Virus record (IMG/VR): IMGVR_UViG_3300014208_000026
Coordinates: 1 to 64,000 of that record
Strand: one strand, 5' to 3'
DNA from: a virus
Taxonomy: Duplodnaviria; Caudoviricetes
Length of the DNA: 64,000 nucleotides
Below the pieces are notes generated by a model, which was given only the letters and a program-made list of their open reading frames with translations, did not search any database and had not been told where the DNA came from. A program made the translations under genes and the position numbers. Positions 1,519 through 64,000 of this stretch are shown here, in pieces; positions within the stretch are counted from its first letter, which is position 1; every line of letters begins with the position of its first letter.

Positions 1519-1977
1519 CTATGATCCAGCCCCAGGAGCAGCGGCCCTGAAACCCGAGATCATAACCAGCCCCCCTTGGCCCATTTGAAGGGCCTCTGTC
1601 CCCTTGAATCCGAAAACCTCTGGGACCACGACCCTCCACAATCCAAGAACCTGCCCTACCGCAAAAAGCTGTAAGGCAGAGTCTGTGCTCCCTAAGATCT
1701 TACCAACCCCCAGGTAGTTAGGGCCCTTGGCTAGGTTCTCCAGATCAGGGTACTGGTACAGGAGGGACACCAACTCCGCTCGGTGCTTCTCTGCTAAGTC
1801 CGTATTCACTACAACCCAACGAAGGCAAACATAGATTGTCTGGACCCCCTTCGGGTTTCCAGACAGCCCAACCCCGTCGTCGAGGAGTTGCTTCACGTTC
1901 AGATCCCTTCCAACAGGGAGCAACGACTCTCCGCCTGCCACTTCATCCAGAATTTCCCGCATTCTTTCTACGTTCAT
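1519..1977 (-). CDS. hypothetical phage-type protein
   Basis: 152-aa ORF, translationally coupled to its neighbour. Confidence 0.65.
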   Translation of the reverse strand: MNVERMREILDEVAGGESLLPVGRDLNVKQLLDDGVGLSGNPKGVQTIYVCLRWVVVNTDLAEKHRAELVSLLYQYPDLENLAKGPNYLGVGKILGSTDSALQLFAVGQVLGLWRVVVPEVFGFKGTEALQMGQGGLVMISGFRAAAPGAGS

Positions 1978-2249
1978 TTTTCGAACCTTTCCGTAGAGGG
2001 CAAAGCCAGGGTTGCTTTGTAGTCATTGACCATGAGAATCGGAGAAGAGTCACGACTCACGAACTGAACCTCTTCCAACGGAACAGTGGCAGACACAGCC
2101 AGCCCGTTTGGACCGGACACAAGAAGCACGACGTGTTGCTCCCTGAAGCCCAAGGTGTATTTGAAGTCCCCGAACTTCTTCACGAGAAGGTTTCCGGTCG
2201 GGCCTTCGGTTTTCCAACCTAGAGTTTCGAGTTCCTCTCGGGCACTCAT
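1974..2249 (-). CDS. hypothetical protein
   Basis: ATGA overlap with the upstream gene stop at 2246-2249. Confidence 0.55.
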   Translation of the reverse strand: MSAREELETLGWKTEGPTGNLLVKKFGDFKYTLGFREQHVVLLVSGPNGLAVSATVPLEEVQFVSRDSSPILMVNDYKATLALPSTERFEK

Positions 2250-2989
2250 AGGCGGTGTCCCCAAATCTGTTTGATAGCCTGCCCGATGCGATAGGTGTTC
2301 ACGGGGGATACGCCCCGAACCATCTCCGTGGCGCGGTTCGTAAGTCTGGCAGTATCCTCCCCTGTAGGAACTAAAACCCAGTCCCCGTGAATATCCTGCC
2401 AGGAGAAACCCGCCTCAGTCTCGCGGGCTTTGATCTTCTTCACCTTGAGGTACAGTCGCAAAGCTTCTACGGTCTGAGGGTGGGAGGAAAGCCACTCCGG
2501 TTTTCCCCGTCGCTTCGCGTTTACAGGGGGTTCGACCGGAGGGGGCGCAATTTGAGAAGTAGTGTTCTGGACAACTGCCCCCTCGTTGTCGACGATCACG
2601 GCTCTAGGGTGTTTCTTGTCTTTGCTCTTGAGCTGGACCAGTTTCTTCTGTTGTGCCTTACGAGGCCGTTTAGGCCAGTCAATCTGGGTGTCATGAACCC
2701 ACACAAAATGATTAGAGCCTAAATCCAGCAACCAAACCATCAAGGATCCCGCAAGAAGCTTCGTCGCCCCCATGAGAGCCCGCTGTTTTGCCTCCTCCTC
2801 TGGAGTAACTACACGGTAATCTGGGGGCCACGGTATTTCAGCGGGGAGGGGTCGCTTGCCTTTTTTTGGTTTGAAATATACCTTCAGGCGACTTCCGGTC
2901 TTGCTCTGTGACAGAACGGGTATCTCCCCTGTGGGGAAATACTTCTCCAAGATCCTGTTTTTCTCGTTCGGAGTTTCTTCGGGCGCCAT
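2246..2989 (-). CDS. hypothetical basic protein
   Basis: 247-aa ORF in a tightly packed minus-strand run. Confidence 0.6.
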   Translation of the reverse strand: MAPEETPNEKNRILEKYFPTGEIPVLSQSKTGSRLKVYFKPKKGKRPLPAEIPWPPDYRVVTPEEEAKQRALMGATKLLAGSLMVWLLDLGSNHFVWVHDTQIDWPKRPRKAQQKKLVQLKSKDKKHPRAVIVDNEGAVVQNTTSQIAPPPVEPPVNAKRRGKPEWLSSHPQTVEALRLYLKVKKIKARETEAGFSWQDIHGDWVLVPTGEDTARLTNRATEMVRGVSPVNTYRIGQAIKQIWGHRL

Positions 2990-3008
2990 CGGGTGGGCCG
3001 TCCTACGT

Positions 3009-3908
3009 CTAAGACTGCTTCAGCACGCCGGAGCCCTTGCAGTGCGGGCAGACGTTCCAAGCGCCGATATCTACGCTCGCTGCAAGCTGGGAGCAGTAGT
3101 CGTCGATAGTGGCTTGAAGATCCGTGAAGTTCTCAGCCCTCAGTTCAGGCAGACGTACTGCATCAGGGGAGGCTTGGTTGTATTTGCCGACAAGCTCCAA
3201 CAGCTTGGATTCGCGGTATTGTTCGAGTTTGGTACACCACTTCTCCCGACGTCCCTTCGTGACAGTATAGTTGATCGTAGACGAGAACGGTACGGCCAGT
3301 TTGATGTTCACCGTCATGGTCTGTATGCTGTCGTAGTCCCGCACGATATACCGATCAGGGTACTTCGCTACGACGTCAAGGACTGCTTTTCGAGCAAAGG
3401 GCCACAGATTCTCCGGAGAGATCCGGCACGAATATGCGTGCCACAGGTAAGGAGCATACTCCAGGCGATAGGGGAAATCGACTTGGCACCAACTCGGGAT
3501 TTCCCGAGGTTCGGCTACAGCTTGAAAGACCTCAAACTCCAGAGGACTCTCGACGGGCGGATCGGGGGTGAAAATTGGATGATAGAATTGGACGTTCTCT
3601 CCTACCCAAAGACCGTCCCCGTCCTCATCCCGCCAAAACGTTGCAGGGGGAACGCTTTCAACCAATCCTGCCGCACGGGCTACTTTGGCGGTTTCGGGAA
3701 CCAACTCAAAATGAGACAGAGTGCGCCCGCCGGAAACCAAGGCTACGACACTAACTACATCCCCCTCTACGATCGCCCAGTTCCTATCCCCCGGGGAAAC
3801 TACGACGGGGGTGCCGTTGATCAGGAGACTACTTCGACCAAGGGCATAACCCACGTTCACGTAGGAACGGCCGTTTGGAGCCTTGATGACGTGCATCTTG
3901 TTTCCCAT
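3009..3908 (-). CDS. hypothetical protein with C-terminal CxxCxGxG zinc finger
   Basis: Ends in CPHCKGSG; ATG at 3908. Confidence 0.65.
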   Translation of the reverse strand: MGNKMHVIKAPNGRSYVNVGYALGRSSLLINGTPVVVSPGDRNWAIVEGDVVSVVALVSGGRTLSHFELVPETAKVARAAGLVESVPPATFWRDEDGDGLWVGENVQFYHPIFTPDPPVESPLEFEVFQAVAEPREIPSWCQVDFPYRLEYAPYLWHAYSCRISPENLWPFARKAVLDVVAKYPDRYIVRDYDSIQTMTVNIKLAVPFSSTINYTVTKGRREKWCTKLEQYRESKLLELVGKYNQASPDAVRLPELRAENFTDLQATIDDYCSQLAASVDIGAWNVCPHCKGSGVLKQS

Positions 3909-3946
3909 GGTCTTCTGCCCCCAGACTGCGAGCCCTGTTCGGAACA

Positions 3947-3975
3947 CAACTATCTGAAACAGGGCTCTTTGTCAA
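3947..3975 (-). promoter_or_regulatory. possible sigma70 promoter TTGACA-N17-TAGTTG
   Basis: Perfect -35, weak -10, intergenic. Confidence 0.35.
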
Positions 3976-3982
3976 GAAACTT

Positions 3983-4267
3983 CTAGGCACTCGCCTGGGT
4001 AGGTTTCTTGGCTTGAATCGACGCTTGCTTCTTCAGGTAGGCAAGGGCCTTGCGCACCCAGGGATCTGCCTCCCGCTTCGGGAGCCTAGCCCAGCGCCGA
4101 ATCCCCTCGTACTCGATGGTAGAGGGGCTTCCTTGGGTATCGTCATCCGTCGACAGAACATAGGGCTCGTAGTCCTTGTCGAATTCGTCGTCGTTGTAGA
4201 CGAACGAACCCTGTTGCAACCGAACGACAATGAACCCCTCACGGCACTTCAGCACGTCGCAGTACAC
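3983..4267 (-). CDS. hypothetical protein
   Basis: 94-aa ORF with AAGGAG RBS. Confidence 0.55.
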   Translation of the reverse strand: MYCDVLKCREGFIVVRLQQGSFVYNDDEFDKDYEPYVLSTDDDTQGSPSTIEYEGIRRWARLPKREADPWVRKALAYLKKQASIQAKKPTQASA

Positions 4268-4338
4268 TTCCGGACTCCTTTTCTATTGAGGACAGCATGA
4301 ACAACACACGGTTTTGATAGGGAAAGAAACGACATTCT

Positions 4339-4923
4339 CTAACCAACCATCTGGACGGCCATTTTCAGGTGCTCGACAACTCTTTGAGTCAGGGCAGGAT
4401 CCTGCTGCCTGAGAAGATACGCCGGATGGTACGTAGGCAAGACCGTGAAGCTAACTTTGGTTGCGGGGTTCGTGTGGGTTCGCGGAATGCCGACCAATTC
4501 GGCCATTGACAGTTGCGTGCCACAAAGCAGATTCCCCGCAAAGCGTCCCAGGGCCACTACCACGACAGGCTGCAACAGGAACAGCTTGGCGTGGAGGTAC
4601 TTCGCACAGCACTTGATTTCTTCGGGGGTCGGGTCTCGGTTATCCGGAGGTCGACAGCACAAGACGTTGGTAATGAACACGTCCTGCCGTTTCAAACCCG
4701 CTTGCTGAAGCATATCGACGAGAAGCGTCCCCGCCCGTCCAACAAAAGGACGGCCCTGGAGGTCTTCATTTCGGCCTGGGGCTTCCCCTACCAGGGCAAT
4801 CTTCGTTTCGTGGGAGCCTTCCCCGAACACCACCCTCTTACGATCGGTGTGCAACCCACACTGAGTGCAAGCTTCGATTTTGGCGTGAAGATAGGCCAGC
4901 CGGTCAGGAACGTTCGAGTTCAT
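4339..4923 (-). CDS. udg: uracil-DNA glycosylase, family 4 (Fe-S)
   Basis: CTQC, GEAPGRNEDLQGRPFVG, CCRPPDNR and HPAYLLR motifs. Confidence 0.92.
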   Translation of the reverse strand: MNSNVPDRLAYLHAKIEACTQCGLHTDRKRVVFGEGSHETKIALVGEAPGRNEDLQGRPFVGRAGTLLVDMLQQAGLKRQDVFITNVLCCRPPDNRDPTPEEIKCCAKYLHAKLFLLQPVVVVALGRFAGNLLCGTQLSMAELVGIPRTHTNPATKVSFTVLPTYHPAYLLRQQDPALTQRVVEHLKMAVQMVG

Positions 4924-5168
4924 TGGCGATACAGCTCTGCGGCGGAGTCAAGGTCAAGGCAGTTCAGCAAAGCAATGGGCAATGCCCGCCACTCTCTAGT
5001 CCCCCGATCTGAAGTCCAAAGCTGTTCAAGCTTGTCCCCCACAGCGAGACGTGGAGAGGAATCTTTTTCAGTCGGCCTGCCGATATGAGGCCGTACAATT
5101 CTAAGCTGTGCCGTAGCACTCCAGGTTAAACCAGTAGACCCATCCACAGTACTCAACGTCGTTTCCAT
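4920..5168 (-). CDS. hypothetical protein
   Basis: ATGA-coupled to the vWA gene stop. Confidence 0.5.
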   Translation of the reverse strand: METTLSTVDGSTGLTWSATAQLRIVRPHIGRPTEKDSSPRLAVGDKLEQLWTSDRGTREWRALPIALLNCLDLDSAAELYRQ

Positions 5169-11676: not shown

Positions 11677-13197
11677 ATGGAAAACACCTTCCGCGAATCC
11701 ATGCTCCGTGGGGCTCTGAAACTGGCCCGAGCGGTATCCCTTACCTACGGCCCCTGCGGGCGTCGGGTCATACTGGAACGTCCAGGAGGACTCCTCTCCA
11801 CCCGAGACGGCGCTACCGTTGCCCGAGATCTTCACCTCGCCGACCGGACCGAGAACCTTGCCTGTCAGCTACTGAAACAAGCTTCCCTCACGGTCGACTC
11901 AGAAGTAGGGGACGGGACTACCACCACCGTCATTCTGGCGGCCAAGCTTCTGCGGGAAGGGCACAAACAGATCGTCGGCGGAACGGACCTCAATGATCTC
12001 CTTTCCGAGATCAAAGAAGGAACAGCCCTTGTTGTCGAATCTCTGAGACAAGGTTCGCAGAAAGCCGCTGAGCGGGAAATCCATCGGGTTGCCGAAATCT
12101 CCAGTGACGGAGACACGGCCATTGCCACGGCAGTTGCCGAGGCTGTTCTCTCCGTGGGGAAGTACGGAACCGTGACTGTAGAGGACGGGAAAACCCTGGA
12201 AATTCAGGTCGAGTACAAAGACGGGATGGAAATCCCCAAGGGCTTTGTCTCCTCCGACTTGGCCCCCGAGGAAACCCTAGAGGGACCCCTCGTGGCAGTT
12301 GTAAACCGAGAGTTGAGAACTTTCGAAGACGTGTCCTCTATCATGGAGGAAGCTTCCCAGTGGCCGAACAACCCCTTGCTTATCATCGCTCCGGCCATAT
12401 CGGGGGATGCTCTCGCCACGCTAATCATGAATCGACAGAAGAAGGTTCTAATCTCGACGGCGGTTGAACTGCCGACCCCTCTATATATGGATCTCCTGGA
12501 GGACGTCGCGGCCATAGCCTCTGCGACTCTCGTAGACCCCGCTGCGGGCATGGACGTTCGAGCTTTCAAACCGGAGTGGTTTGGCTTCTTTCGGTATGCA
12601 ACGCTCCGTAAGGAATCCAGCACTTTCATCTCGTACCCTGAAGCCCAGGAATCCATTCAGCAGCGTATTGCCACGCTGTCCCACCAGAAAGACACGACCT
12701 CCTTCGACTATGACAAGGACCGCTTACAGGAGCGCATCGCCAAGCTGTCCGAGGGGCTTTGCATTCTGAAGGTAGGCGGAAACACTGAAACGGAAATCCG
12801 TGAGCGCCGTACTCGGGTGGAAGACACCCTGAGTGCTGTTCGAACAGCCATGGAAAGCGGCGTCCTCCCTGGCGGGGGGCTGGCATACATTCAGGCTATT
12901 TCATGCTTGGATAGGAACATGCCAGGGCACCGTGTTCTGGCTGAAGCCCTCAAAGAACCTTTCCGTGTGTTGGTACAGAACAGCGGGAAAGAACCCGAGC
13001 CCCTTCTCCCTCAGATCGAGGTAGGAAGTAACGTAGGGTGGGACGTCATGCAGGGGCGGTTCAGGGACTTTATCCAGGAAGAGCCTCTGCTCATTGACCC
13101 GACCGGCGTTCTAGTCTCCGCCCTTCGGTCCGCCGTGTCGACCGCCTGCCTCATTCTCTCTTCTGAAACTGCCGTGCTTTGTAAGTCTAGAAAGTAG
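11677..13197 (+). CDS. groEL: divergent chaperonin GroEL/Cpn60
   Basis: TYGPCGR, TRDGATVA, VGDGTTT, RLQERIAKL and VLPGGG; no GGM tail. Confidence 0.9.
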   Translation: MENTFRESMLRGALKLARAVSLTYGPCGRRVILERPGGLLSTRDGATVARDLHLADRTENLACQLLKQASLTVDSEVGDGTTTTVILAAKLLREGHKQIVGGTDLNDLLSEIKEGTALVVESLRQGSQKAAEREIHRVAEISSDGDTAIATAVAEAVLSVGKYGTVTVEDGKTLEIQVEYKDGMEIPKGFVSSDLAPEETLEGPLVAVVNRELRTFEDVSSIMEEASQWPNNPLLIIAPAISGDALATLIMNRQKKVLISTAVELPTPLYMDLLEDVAAIASATLVDPAAGMDVRAFKPEWFGFFRYATLRKESSTFISYPEAQESIQQRIATLSHQKDTTSFDYDKDRLQERIAKLSEGLCILKVGGNTETEIRERRTRVEDTLSAVRTAMESGVLPGGGLAYIQAISCLDRNMPGHRVLAEALKEPFRVLVQNSGKEPEPLLPQIEVGSNVGWDVMQGRFRDFIQEEPLLIDPTGVLVSALRSAVSTACLILSSETAVLCKSRK

Positions 13198-33018: not shown

Positions 33019-33047
33019 TTGACTCCCTCCAATATTTCCCCTATACT
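33019..33047 (+). promoter_or_regulatory. sigma70 promoter TTGACT-N17-TATACT for tnpB
   Basis: Followed by GGAGG RBS and ATG at 33072. Confidence 0.75.
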
Positions 33048-59624: not shown

Positions 59625-61064
59625 GTGAGTTACGATACTTCGTTCCGGCCTCGAACCTACGATGAAGTGTTGGGGCAGGAAGCTATCATTCGAGTCCTTC
59701 GGGAGATCATCAAGCAAGGTCGGGGGTTTCAACAGTCCTACGTGTTTGCGGGTCTGTGGGGCGGCGGAAAAACCACGTTGGGTAGAATCTTCGCCAGAGC
59801 CCTTCTCTGTCAGCATCCGAAGGATACGGGAGATCCTTGTGATGAGTGTCTTTCTTGCAGGTCTTTCCTGGAGAAGGGAGTCAGCGAAGATTTTACAGAG
59901 GTAGACGCCGGAGCGACGTCCAAAGTAGAAGATGTGCGTAAGATTCTTGATCTTTTACAGTTCCAAACATTCTCCGGTAAACAACGGATATACTTGATCG
60001 ATGAGAGTCATCGTCTAAGTTCGGCCTCCAGAACAGCACTTCTTAAGTCTTTAGAGGATGAGGTTAAACCCGGCTCTAAAGATAAGCAGCTTGTTTGCAT
60101 ATTCTGTACTACAGAGCCAGAATCAATGCACCCAACGATCTTTTCTCGCTGTGCCCCTATCTTTAGAGTTCAAGCAGTGGCTCCCGAGATCCTTGCCAAG
60201 CGGCTGGCTTTCGTGTGTGAGCAGGAGAAGGTCCCGTACGACAGGGAGGCTCTGGTTCTAGTCTCCGAGATCGTGGAGTGCCATATCCGTGACGCCCTGA
60301 AAGCCATAGAAGGGATAGCCCTTCTGGGGGCCGTCAACTTGGAAAACACTCGGTCCTACCTGCACCTGGATTTGCAGGATACCTACCTGTCCATCATCGA
60401 GAACCTCGGAACGGACCTGCAAGGAGTCTTGTCCCGTACGGACGAAATGTTCCTTCAGATTTCTCCTGCGACGTTCTACGAGAAGCTGGCCGAGATTGCT
60501 TTGCTGGCCTACCGGCTCTTTCTTGGGATCCCCCCGCAAGGTTCTCACTGGGACAAGGTTCGGTTGCAGGCGGTGGGGCAGAGATTCGGGGAGAAGCTTA
60601 TCGACGTGGCATCTTGGCTGTCCCAGCGTCCGGTACGGCCTTCCCCCGCTATGGTGCATTGTGATCTGGCGATTCTGCATCGTGTAGTGTCTGGCGTGCA
60701 AGCTTTGCCCGCGACAAATCCCGACCCTGTTGTTTTCATGGCAAGTTCTGCCCCGCCCGTCGCGCACCCTATTAGCAATATGCCTCTTCCCGCACTTTCT
60801 TCTCCGACACCGATAGTTTCTCAGCCCCAGGCTGTTTCTGCAACTTCGGTATCTACAAATGGGAAGACTTCTGGTACTATATCGATGGTAACAGCAGGTG
60901 GGCGTTTCGATGCTGATCCACGAGGGTATCGAAGACCTGATTCTGTTGAAACAAAAAAGAACCCTGCGATCATGGAACCTGCCGATTTCGGACGGTTCCT
61001 GTATCAACACTTTTTGAGTATTGCCGATGGACAAACGGGACAATCCAACATGGGTGGTAGTTGA
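59625..61064 (+). CDS. dnaX: DNA Pol III gamma/tau
   Basis: YRP-like FRPRTYDEVLGQ, GGGKTT, CDECLSC, IDESH and SRC. Confidence 0.92.
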   Translation: MSYDTSFRPRTYDEVLGQEAIIRVLREIIKQGRGFQQSYVFAGLWGGGKTTLGRIFARALLCQHPKDTGDPCDECLSCRSFLEKGVSEDFTEVDAGATSKVEDVRKILDLLQFQTFSGKQRIYLIDESHRLSSASRTALLKSLEDEVKPGSKDKQLVCIFCTTEPESMHPTIFSRCAPIFRVQAVAPEILAKRLAFVCEQEKVPYDREALVLVSEIVECHIRDALKAIEGIALLGAVNLENTRSYLHLDLQDTYLSIIENLGTDLQGVLSRTDEMFLQISPATFYEKLAEIALLAYRLFLGIPPQGSHWDKVRLQAVGQRFGEKLIDVASWLSQRPVRPSPAMVHCDLAILHRVVSGVQALPATNPDPVVFMASSAPPVAHPISNMPLPALSSPTPIVSQPQAVSATSVSTNGKTSGTISMVTAGGRFDADPRGYRRPDSVETKKNPAIMEPADFGRFLYQHFLSIADGQTGQSNMGGS

Positions 61065-61656
61065 ACTCAACCGGACCGGAGAGGTCAAGGTTGAGGAAGG
61101 TACCTTAGAAGAGTCCCTTCGGCGTGACCTGGATGCTGATCTTCCCCTTTTCATTCCAGCTAAGACCTACATGAAGGGCAATAAGCCCGTTACCGTACAG
61201 TTGATGCAGGGGTACGCTTTTGTTGGGGCGGGGCTCGACGAAGTTTCCTACTTCGCTTTGGAGAAGCGCCCTTACGTCAGTCGAGTTCTCTCTTCAAAGA
61301 ATGCAAGCAAGATGCGGGTTCTGCAGGTCGTCTCAGACGAGAAGGTCAAAGAGCTTCGTAGAAAGCTGCGGGAGGCGATAGCTTCCGATATCGAGATCGG
61401 GGCTCACGTTACGATTACGGAAGGGCAGTACGCCAAGCTAGACGGGAAAGTGGTCGGACTGGAAGAAGACAATGCCTTTGTCTACGTTGTGCTGCGATCT
61501 TTGAAGATCGTTGCGTCCGTGCCGGTGGTCTTTCTTGAGACCGTCGAATGCGGGGCAGATTGTGCTGTGTGTCTTGGACTGGGCGACGGCGAGAGAAGCC
61601 GCAACACCTGGGGAGATGCAGCATGGCACAATTTTGGTCCGGACATCAAGTCGTAG
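61027..61656 (+). CDS. nusG: NusG-family transcription factor (NGN + KOW)
   Basis: WVVV, LMQGYAFV and IGAHVTITEGQYAKLDGKV. Confidence 0.8.
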   Translation: MDKRDNPTWVVVELNRTGEVKVEEGTLEESLRRDLDADLPLFIPAKTYMKGNKPVTVQLMQGYAFVGAGLDEVSYFALEKRPYVSRVLSSKNASKMRVLQVVSDEKVKELRRKLREAIASDIEIGAHVTITEGQYAKLDGKVVGLEEDNAFVYVVLRSLKIVASVPVVFLETVECGADCAVCLGLGDGERSRNTWGDAAWHNFGPDIKS

Positions 61657-62228
61657 ACCCAACTGAGTTGGAAGCAAGGTTCTCCAATGAGGACGGGATA
61701 GGCTACCTGGAGTCCATTACCGAAGAGCCTTCAGAAGAGGCTCTAGAGAAGATCAAGAAGGTTCGGGTCATAATGGAGACGCTTCCGGACAGGGAAGCGG
61801 ACTTCGTCGACCTGTATTTCTTCAAACAGATTCGGCAGACTGGCATTGCCGATATTTTCAAGGTCAGTCAGCCGACCGTTTGTTACCGGCTCCAGAGAGC
61901 GACGGCTCGAATACGATTCCTGCTGGAACTGCCCGCCTTGATCTGGGAAGATTTCCAGCGGGATGTGGCTGTGGCTTTGCCTGATTTTCTTGACCGACGG
62001 ATCATGTTCCTTATGTATGGGACGGCTTGTCAGAGTGAGGTAGCCAAGATTCTGAAGGTGTCCCAGGGGTTGGTTCGGCACCGGTTCATCCGTTCCATCG
62101 TGCGTTTGAGGGATCACGCGGATATGGGCCTCTATGCCAAGTTGTTCGAAGCTATTGCCAGCAACCTGAATATCCGTAGGGAAGTCCAGCGTTCTTGGGA
62201 AGGCCGCGTCTCCTGCGTTGTTGCCTAA
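61623..62228 (+). CDS. protein with two tandem sigma70 region-4 HTH domains
   Basis: LPDREADFVDLYF..QTGIADIFKVSQPTV and LPDFLDRRIM..QSEVAKILKVSQGLV. Confidence 0.7.
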   Translation: MAQFWSGHQVVDPTELEARFSNEDGIGYLESITEEPSEEALEKIKKVRVIMETLPDREADFVDLYFFKQIRQTGIADIFKVSQPTVCYRLQRATARIRFLLELPALIWEDFQRDVAVALPDFLDRRIMFLMYGTACQSEVAKILKVSQGLVRHRFIRSIVRLRDHADMGLYAKLFEAIASNLNIRREVQRSWEGRVSCVVA

Positions 62229-62627: not shown

Positions 62628-63296
62628 ATGAGCACACTCAGGAAGGCTGCGATTCAGTTGGCCCATGGGAACCCCAAGGTTCGTCCATATCTGTTGCCTC
62701 TACTGGCCCGTACGGCGGCGGGAGGAAAGTGGATTCAGGACGCCATTAAGCAGCCTGGGGCTCTCCATGAGCACTTTGGAATCCCGAAGGATGAAACTAT
62801 CCCCCCTGAAAAGATCGACGCCGAGATTGCCCGCGTGAAGTCGAAGAAGAAGCCTTCTGCGGGGGATGCAACCCTGCTCAAGCAGTTGAACCTCGCCAAG
62901 ACCCTCCGAGGGTTCGGGAAGAAAGCGGGGATGGTGGGGGACACAGAGCCTGTGCTGGGCACCGCTTTGGACTACTTCTCGCGAGATCGGGCCAAGAACC
63001 TTGTGAACAAGCTGCTGGCGAAGTACACGAATGGTATTTTCAGGGACACTTCTTGGAAGCCTCTGGGGGATATCCGACGGGCTTTCGAGCAGGCTAATAT
63101 CCCCCTGATCATTTCGGGCGGGACTTATGGCCACAACGATGAGGGCACGCCGACCAACAAGAGCTGGCACCTGGAGGTCCCCTTCATTAACCAGGGCGGG
63201 AAGCCCACATGGCTGATCGGTACTTGTGTGGCGTCGGGAGCAGGTTCCGTTAAGGACCCTCTGGAACGCTATGATCTCGTAGCATACGTGAGCTAG
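62628..63296 (+). CDS. modular protein with LAHxxPxxRxxLLPL leader
   Basis: MSTLRKAAIQLAHGNPKVRPYLLPLLARTAA then KWIQDAIKQPGALH. Confidence 0.7.
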   Translation: MSTLRKAAIQLAHGNPKVRPYLLPLLARTAAGGKWIQDAIKQPGALHEHFGIPKDETIPPEKIDAEIARVKSKKKPSAGDATLLKQLNLAKTLRGFGKKAGMVGDTEPVLGTALDYFSRDRAKNLVNKLLAKYTNGIFRDTSWKPLGDIRRAFEQANIPLIISGGTYGHNDEGTPTNKSWHLEVPFINQGGKPTWLIGTCVASGAGSVKDPLERYDLVAYVS

Positions 63297-63308
63297 GGGG
63301 TTAGGGCC

Positions 63309-64000
63309 ATGGATGACAAGCAACTCCGAAAAACTTTGGTGCGGTTGGCTCACCAGAAGCCCGAGCTTCGTGGGAGGCTTCTGCCCCTGATCCGTACCGC
63401 GGCAGTGAAGCGTCCGGAAGAGTTCAAGCACCTCAAACGTTACACCTCTTCTGATCTGCGGGAGTTCTGTGACTCTCTGTACACGAAGAATTTCCTCCGG
63501 ATGAAAACCCACGACGCCTGGAAAACAGGGATGCTCCTCTCCTCTCCTATGTACGCTCTGGGTTCGGGGTTGTTGGGTTCGTTTGGCGGGCCAGTGGGCA
63601 AGGCGATCCGTGAACGTTCATTGAAACCGATTCTTGCAGGGGCTGCGGACCCAGGCGGGAAGATTCTGGACGGTATCCTGCGTACGATTGGGCCGGACAA
63701 CGTTTTGGAACTGATGTCAGGGGAAAAATACGCTTTCATCACCTGGATTACGGACAACGGGGAAAACGTTGTGTCGGTGTCTTTCCTCCCTGACAAAGAG
63801 AAGAAGGCCCCTGGCGTTGGAATGAAAGTTTTTGAAATCACGGACTACCTTCAGGCTCATGGTCTGATTCCGTCCGGCGGTGGTTCCCAGTGGAATTACT
63901 ATGGTCTGGAAAGCAAACCTGGGGAGGGACCCTTCGTTCGTCTTGGGAAGAGGACGATTCGATTGGTGTGGCGTAGTCGGCGTACGGATCAGTGGGCTCC
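63309..64000 (+). CDS. protein with the same leader, runs off the window (not in ORF track)
   Basis: Manual translation: MDDKQLRKTLVRLAHQKPELRGRLLPLIRTAA..., open to the end. Confidence 0.72.
   Translation, partial: MDDKQLRKTLVRLAHQKPELRGRLLPLIRTAAVKRPEEFKHLKRYTSSDLREFCDSLYTKNFLRMKTHDAWKTGMLLSSPMYALGSGLLGSFGGPVGKAIRERSLKPILAGAADPGGKILDGILRTIGPDNVLELMSGEKYAFITWITDNGENVVSVSFLPDKEKKAPGVGMKVFEITDYLQAHGLIPSGGGSQWNYYGLESKPGEGPFVRLGKRTIRLVWRSRRTDQWA

Follow-up and report, generated by a model that had tools for sequence, protein, structure and literature searches.

A peptide module of about 28 residues, hereafter the tag, is carried by many otherwise unrelated proteins of a clade of huge tailed phages, and it was encountered here as the common leader of two adjacent genes, P0001 and P0002, at the end of a 64,000-nucleotide stretch of viral DNA (Caudoviricetes). 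This whole stretch, referred to as the window, makes up the initial 64 kb of a linear IMG/VR virus record of 257,181 bp (IMGVR_UViG_3300014208_000026), which is about 49% complete according to the CheckV estimate. By analogy with the capsid-targeting sequence (CTS) of phage T4 or the DarB signal of phage P1, the tag could serve for docking of proteins in the prohead and be removed by the head protease, an interpretation with about an even chance of being correct. A short motif that follows the tag is also found near the termini of this phage's head protease and scaffold.

P0001 (62628-63296, plus strand, 222 aa) starts at an ATG at 62628 that has an AAGGA-type ribosome site, and P0002 (63309-64121, plus strand, 270 aa) starts at an ATG at 63309 and ends past the window end. 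The two leader peptides quoted in a preliminary description of the window, MSTLRKAAIQLAHGNPKVRPYLLPLLARTAA and MDDKQLRKTLVRLAHQKPELRGRLLPLIRTAA, are present as given at these start codons. The leader of P0001 occupies residues 1-27 (62628..62708, plus strand), with two short helices and a G-N-P joint, and is followed by R-T-A-A at residues 28-31 (62709..62720, plus strand), a candidate head-protease site. In P0002, residues 1-28 (63309..63392, plus strand) form the leader and residues 29-32 (63393..63404, plus strand) the same R-T-A-A junction, and the net charge of each leader is +5. A junction peptide, LLPLLARTAAGG, is a candidate substrate for the head protease. The pattern shared by both leaders is L[RK]xxx[VI][RK]LA[HY]xxPxxRxxLLPL[LI], then RTAA, with no Glu at the last position of the junction. 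As had been claimed, the two proteins diverge fully after RTAA: the eight tagged bodies of this genome share no mutual similarity, with a best BLASTP E-value of 0.14 among all eight in tag-free form. The second gene had also been said to be absent from the open reading frame (ORF) track, and this is so because it runs off the window end, being 3′-open at 63998 and ending at 64121 in the full record. Over a 23-residue core, P0001 and P0002 have 12 residues in common but only four identical codons, and the DNA upstream of one gene is unrelated to that upstream of the other. The likeness of the leaders is therefore maintained at the protein level, and it reflects neither a recent DNA copy nor an RNA element.

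A genome-wide count of the leader was made with a hidden Markov model (HMM) run on the six-frame translation of the whole 257-kb record. It returned eight copies whose likeness is far beyond chance. E-values were 2e-15 to 3e-20 for six of them and about 2e-6 to 4e-6 for the two divergent copies, and the next frame below them had an E-value of 0.17. Seven copies are N-terminal and one is C-terminal. In addition to P0001 and P0002, N-terminal tags begin P0003 (start 64571), P0005 (start 82362), which adjoins the portal gene directly downstream, P0006 (start 119924), P0007 (start 128578), and P0008 (153583-154539, minus strand, start 154539). In P0004 (67416-68114), the tag is the C-terminal end of the protein, and R-L-A-S stands just before it.

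Beyond this record, a profile of 28 columns built from the eight copies was searched against 1.84 billion cluster representatives, of which 3125 matched at E <= 1e-3. No Pfam or PHROG family covers the tag in a scan of the eight proteins of this genome and 135 further tagged proteins. At the DNA level, a degenerate pattern encoding the consensus AHxNPELRxxLLPL has 21 matching stretches, spread over 16 IMG/VR contigs (28-485 kb), and it is absent from prokaryotes (185,579 species, one genome each). Twelve related viral records have 4-15 tag copies each, and the capsid protein in nine of them is 82-88% identical to that of this phage; they form one clade of huge phages. One further contig (L070, ENA contig k119_79254) holds four tagged genes in succession at 1816-4931, the first of which, P0016, has four copies, so that tandem arrays of tagged genes such as that at 62628-65092 here recur in distant phages. 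A non-exhaustive literature search found no earlier account of a tag of this kind from huge or jumbo phages, only analogies in T4, P1, and SPN3US.

With regard to the position of the tag in proteins, the best 150 of the 3125 profile matches, which are by construction multi-copy proteins (2-6 tags), contain 118 N-terminal, 177 internal, and 59 C-terminal copies. A less biased census took in the majority of the tag matches from four relatives. Of its 53 copies, located in 47 reading frames, 45 are N-terminal (85%, starting at residue 1-5), six internal, and two C-terminal, and only six of the 47 tagged proteins in these related genomes are multi-copy. Many proteins carry two to six copies with acidic, low-complexity spacers between them, and P0109, a protein of 63 aa, is almost nothing but tag, in the order tag-KTAS-tag. 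Clustering with the tag masked sorted the 55 tagged proteins examined from five related phages into 51 body clusters, and just three of 47 tagged bodies had a Pfam match of any kind. The preliminary description had proposed a portable leader peptide. Its portability is borne out by these 51 unrelated bodies among 55 tagged proteins, but it is not strictly a leader, since the C-terminal copy of P0004 and the internal and multi-copy forms make that name too narrow. The tag is a portable add-on on a fast-changing gene set.

Neither body of the focal pair was found in 11 related phage records, and among 5.8 billion clusters the body of P0002 (63405..64000 in the window, onward to 64121, plus strand), an orphan, has no relative but itself. 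P0001 is modular, its leader being followed by a small helical module (residues 34-99, 62727..62924, plus strand) and then by an alpha/beta domain (residues 110-222 plus the stop codon, 62955..63296, plus strand). The helical module matches Pfam PF25632, the Fusellovirus VP2 family, with an E-value of 4.6e-7 and 30.6 bits, just over the cut-off of 27, and phrog_15706 with an E-value of 1.3e-8. In AlphaFold2 (AF2) models, the alpha/beta domain is predicted with a per-residue confidence (pLDDT) of 84-95, and no clear fold match for the P0001 model was found by VIA-align (best Z 6.3). Six homologs of this domain (44-53% identity) stand alone elsewhere, and all lack the leader. One homolog of residues 110-222 in another phage, P0279, begins with MNIIQRVAARY, which is a second tag of the present genome (RVAxR-aromatic), and on sequence the two tags look interchangeable. 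The second tag may address a different head site.

In AF2 models, the tag is predicted to be a helix-turn-helix of about 30 residues. The two-tag protein P0109 gave helices at 6-16/18-29 and 37-50/55-62 (pLDDT 85, predicted template modeling score 0.63), and the leader of P0001 gave helices at 3-14 and 19-28 with low confidence. The net charge of the tag ranges from +1 to +5. Positions L13, A14, and R21 are invariant, and L6, R7, P18, L24, L25, and P26 are at least 90% conserved, and hydrophobic and basic positions are conserved alike, as would be expected for a binding surface. Searches with Foldseek (two-tag model), VIA-align (P0001 model), and the ESM Atlas (leader) gave background-level helical or weak matches. 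A complex prediction for the capsid protein and the tag, run without controls, scored 0.00 and carries no weight for or against binding. A Sec or Tat signal peptide was rejected by inspection, the longest hydrophobic run being LLPLL, the charges being spread throughout, and an RR motif being lacking. Pfam repeats of the leucine-rich-repeat-variant (LRV) and HEAT types (PF01816 and PF25591) were likewise considered and rejected: none of the eight proteins here match them, the two matches among 88 profile hits are both long bacterial repeat proteins, and the module is usually single in the clade.

The junction next to the tag would link it to head maturation. The preliminary description had the leader ending in a cleavage site, and a conserved junction of the candidate form [KR]-x-A-[AGS] is indeed seen in 38 of 52 N-terminal copies, within five residues after the tag; conservation stops there. 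The residue that follows LLPL[LI] is K in 65%, and it is succeeded by any residue, by A in 54%, and then by A, G, or S. In the worldwide set, [KR]xA stands right after the tag in 70% of cases versus 17.6% of control windows, and [KR]xA[STAG] stands right before internal or C-terminal copies in 56% versus 6.9% of controls. Hence, whichever side of the tag adjoins the remainder of the protein bears the motif.

Proteins of head assembly have this motif as well. In the proteome of this phage, [RK]TA[AGST] is threefold enriched (45 sites seen versus 13.3 +/- 3.1 expected from shuffled proteins), and scrambled versions of it are at expectation. The sites concentrate in proteins whose genes map to 62-121 kb, and their distance is often 14-33 residues to the N-terminus or 5-10 to the C-terminus. 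In relatives, the genes leading to the capsid gene encode, in order, a zinc-ribbon protein, a 470-505-aa protein, an acidic scaffold, and a 220-aa decoration-like protein. Of these, the 470-505-aa protein was assigned as the head maturation protease by its match to phrog_18299. In this phage, the protease gene (103161-106475; L005:13161-16475) carries two inteins, and it was identified solely via its intein-free orthologs of 470-505 aa in seven relatives; Pfam prohead-protease models S77 and S78 have no match in this genome, and sequence searches of the PDB with the extein parts of the protease gave none either. The Hint domains of the inteins start near residues 129 and 673, beside GGQNF/CEH and TLSMG/C (split after F and G, respectively). 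The motif is conserved at residues 26-29 of the protease in eight of eight orthologs, at the N-terminus of the scaffold (residues 10-14) in six of eight, and twice just upstream of the conserved C-terminal 22-mer of the scaffold in all eight. A maturation protease is expected to cut just before the terminal anchor peptide of the scaffold, and the position of the motif there is the main reason for reading the tag junction as a protease site. Judged on sequence, the motif at the ends of protease and scaffold has the look expected of a prohead-protease site. The capsid N-arm also has K25-L-A-A-S, which carries little weight because the whole capsid protein is 91% conserved.

From the module, its portability and distribution, the conservation of the junction, and the protease and scaffold motif, all of which are observed, we infer binding, enclosure, cleavage, and delivery. 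Briefly, the tag would be a basic helix-turn-helix docking module of about 28 residues on many fast-changing small accessory proteins, usually at the N-terminus. It would bind a conserved prohead component (capsid protein, scaffold, or portal), and the tagged proteins would thereby be enclosed. The head maturation protease would then cut the [KR]-x-A-[AGS] junction, as it would the same kind of site in the scaffold and in itself, and the bodies would be freed inside the head and presumably delivered to the host with the DNA.

Several features of the genomic setting bear on this proposal. P0001 and P0002 head a co-directional block that reaches the portal gene (80433-82304, phrog_16240) and the major capsid protein gene (108768-109643, phrog_2522), the portal and capsid genes being on the same strand as the focal genes; the acidic scaffold gene is at 106491-107873 (plus strand). 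In a relative that is 92% complete (G003), the decoration-like and capsid genes are separated from the scaffold gene by a tagged gene. A promoter-like bipartite box, consisting of CCTATAG, about 10 bases, and TAG(G)TAG, often after a T-run, was found at 14 sites versus 1.75 expected, its pattern having been defined after inspection of the data. It precedes the tagged genes P0005-P0008, the genes for the decoration and capsid proteins, and the operon leading into the protease; it is lacking at P0001 and P0002, whose expression seems to come from readthrough of the upstream region.

Systems that load proteins into shells offer several points of comparison. Scaffolding proteins such as P22 gp8, T7 gp9, and phi29 gp7 bind the coat with a C-terminal helix-turn-helix. 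This element resembles the tag in being basic, of about 30 residues, and at a protein end, and in that it could dock inside an HK97-fold shell. However, the acidic scaffold of this phage lacks the module and ends in a different conserved 22-mer. Encapsulins, whose shells have the HK97 fold, and bacterial microcompartments take up diverse cargo by short, terminal cargo-loading and encapsulation peptides, which are cellular and are not removed; the tag, on the other hand, is virus-only as far as tested and has a candidate cut site.

Closer parallels are found among phages. In T4, the CTS is present on the internal proteins IPI-III and Alt (Mullaney and Black 1996, via PMC9024508 and PMC3012670). 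Both it and the tag are N-terminal peptides common to otherwise unrelated accessory proteins and precede a short site of the prohead-protease type, a candidate one in the case of the tag, and the site motif of the tag recurs in scaffold and protease, as gp21 sites do in T4 core proteins. The two have no sequence likeness, the tag comprises about 28 residues and two predicted helices versus about 10 residues in T4, and the T4 gp21-type site (hydrophobic-x-Glu) ends in Glu, unlike the [KR]-x-A-[AGS] junction. The tag further differs from the CTS in being also C-terminal, internal, and multi-copy and in marking dozens of bodies per genome. In P1, the N-terminal ~30 residues of DarB, an anti-restriction protein injected with the DNA, suffice to bring a foreign protein into the head (PMC9024508). 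This signal is described for a single protein rather than a family, and PMC9024508 mentions neither a shared motif nor a site of removal for it. In the giant phages SPN3US and phiKZ, the prohead protease removes propeptides of ejection and inner-body proteins (PMC5694885, PMC10052503, PMC7411985), and many head-packed proteins are trimmed at a short consensus site that is also used on scaffold-like proteins. These propeptides, however, are not one portable module, their cut-site consensus is another, and the phages form a different clade, with virion proteomes. The tag is not a member of the T4 CTS or P1 DarB families, from which it differs in sequence, length, fold, and cut site.

A number of points weigh against prohead docking followed by cleavage. 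Loading, cleavage, and virion location are steps that we infer, and the docking partner is limited to candidates (capsid protein, scaffold, or portal). The scaffold of this phage has no tag even at an E-value of 10 with the tag HMM, and the C-terminal helix of the protease is like tag helix 1 over six columns (hhalign P 0.013), a likeness that was not relied on. In a 485-kb relative, the tags are spread across more than 400 kb, far from the head genes, and in another phage a doubly tagged gene comes after a chaperonin gene. Near-tag-only proteins such as P0109 are not explained by a pure address label. The junction [KR]-x-A-[AGS] is low in information and, within the tags, could be simply the end of helix 2. 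The tags of G003 mostly have K-E-A and its head proteins R-I-A, R-G-A, and K-V-A, so that co-variation of the second junction residue is weak, and a comparison of tags and head proteins in four genomes, too small a number for the purpose, gave mixed results and was not used. Finally, no cultured phage with the tag was found by tblastn with a four-tag protein against 50,697 GenBank phage records, the sole match being one uncultured 485-kb record.

An alternative role for the tag is that of a general sticker, by which tagged proteins would join each other or a non-capsid hub such as a chaperonin, a condensate, or a replication or assembly compartment, with no need for cleavage; multi-tag proteins would then be cross-linkers and single-tag proteins clients. 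This would suit the proteins with two to six copies and acidic, low-complexity spacers, those with little beyond two tags, and the scattering of tags over genomes, and the four predicted helices of P0109 are compatible with two hairpins packed together. The latter model is weak support, because single-sequence AF2 packs nearly any amphipathic helices. A Cpn60 chaperonin is encoded in all five phages tested, often with tagged genes within a few kb, but this distance is not clearly closer than chance. The small share of multi-copy proteins (6 of 47), the strictly N-terminal position of 85% of copies in related genomes, and a protease-like motif on the body-facing side of the tag, which a permanent sticker would not need, speak against this role, and it is considered unlikely. 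Somewhat less likely still is a small basic helix-turn-helix that is retained and binds a common target (DNA, RNA polymerase, or ribosome), K-x-A being the end of its helix 2. Constraint at nearly every position of the module, together with its positive net charge, would fit such a binding surface, and the focal genes come after sigma-like, NusG-like, and clamp-loader-like genes. The profile also cross-matches leucine-rich-repeat-variant and HEAT-type repeats, which are permanent, in two bacterial proteins. A retained domain, however, leaves unexplained the enrichment of the tetrapeptide and its conservation at the ends of protease and scaffold, the motif on both sides of internal copies, and the occurrence of one body with different tags in different phages.

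Shared ancestry without function was also weighed, the tag being then a relic of duplication or recombination (a DNA cassette) or a nucleotide element such as an RNA structure at gene starts. Tagged genes often stand in tandem arrays, and in two other tagged-gene pairs of this genome the upstream DNA is alike in addition to the leader (46-51 of 70 bases identical). In the focal pair, on the contrary, only four of the 12 conserved residues are encoded by identical codons and the upstream regions show no relation, and the peptide is kept across 3125 protein clusters and in phages with unrelated tagged bodies; this is purifying selection acting at the protein level. A relic or nucleotide element is thus disfavoured and very improbable.

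Some further features of this genome are recorded here. Upstream of the tagged genes, the plus strand of the window encodes a clamp-loader-like protein (59625-61064), a weakly supported NusG-like protein (61021-61656), and then a sigma-70 region-4 protein (61548..62228). The promoter-like box occurs at positions 82316, 93491, 107972, 119874, 121122, 128537, 154582 (minus strand), 130247 (minus strand), 237777, and 245145 of the record and at 33040 and 34679 in the window; the gene start follows the box at a distance of 10-93 nt, and the second half of the box often pairs with the ribosome-binding site as a hairpin. The Cpn60/GroEL-like chaperonin gene of this phage is at 11722-13173 of the window (the others being in G002, G003, G004, G005, and L067), just upstream of an operon with the RVAxR-aromatic tag. 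Tagged genes lie 0.1-3.5 kb from a chaperonin gene in four of six cases, and a linkage between the two was rejected as not clearly beyond chance at one tag per 10-50 kb.

Among the tagged proteins, P0008 is repetitive after its leader: the segment DPTxxMSPEAKAKWEANKGKIEDIAKKA occurs twice and a helical unit of 85 residues three times, with K-T-A-G directly before two of the three units, a layout that is polyprotein-like. Tiny modules recur after the tag in P0005, P0006, P0008, and many profile matches, for example SPEALKKYLKDHPNAD..H.V, KDPSYQDYLDKKKKxGEKPL, GKPADPTENMSPEDAxxW, and AGCEKLPEGPMRDNCxKKK. Two basic helices of the acidic scaffold, K-T-A-S-LKRRLAKAEAQLRKLAEE and E-V-A-S-LKKRLAKVEALLKKA, each stand right behind a cut-site-like motif; they loosely recall tag helix 1, and the tag HMM is blind to both. 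Two long antisense frames, 64142-65026 (minus strand) and 106467-107939 (minus strand), overlap P0003 and the acidic scaffold gene, respectively. Both look spurious, and a longest-ORF caller would pick them and hide the real genes.

To our knowledge, the contents of the head and the choice of its proteins in huge phages are known only for a few cultured models, namely T4, P1, and the phiKZ/SPN3US group. If the tag is indeed an address label, it would provide a list, from sequence only, of candidate head cargo for an uncultured clade, comprising thousands of proteins of which few have a known function, as well as a testable protease specificity and a ready means of bringing foreign proteins into large capsids. 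That a near-invariant tag is combined with unrelated, quickly replaced bodies marks these genes as a likely arms-race repertoire. Even if one of the alternatives holds instead, the tag would still be an interaction module that is virus-only, has not been described before, and occurs in more than 3000 protein clusters. A broader and more tentative proposal, which is less likely than not, is that the tag and [KR]-x-A-[AGS] together constitute a general cargo code, not described so far, that a whole clade of phages of 250-530 kb has in common. In that case, head-loaded and host-delivered proteins could be read from sequence, dozens per genome, and this cargo would be mostly without assigned function and of quick turnover, as expected of host-takeover or anti-defence effectors.

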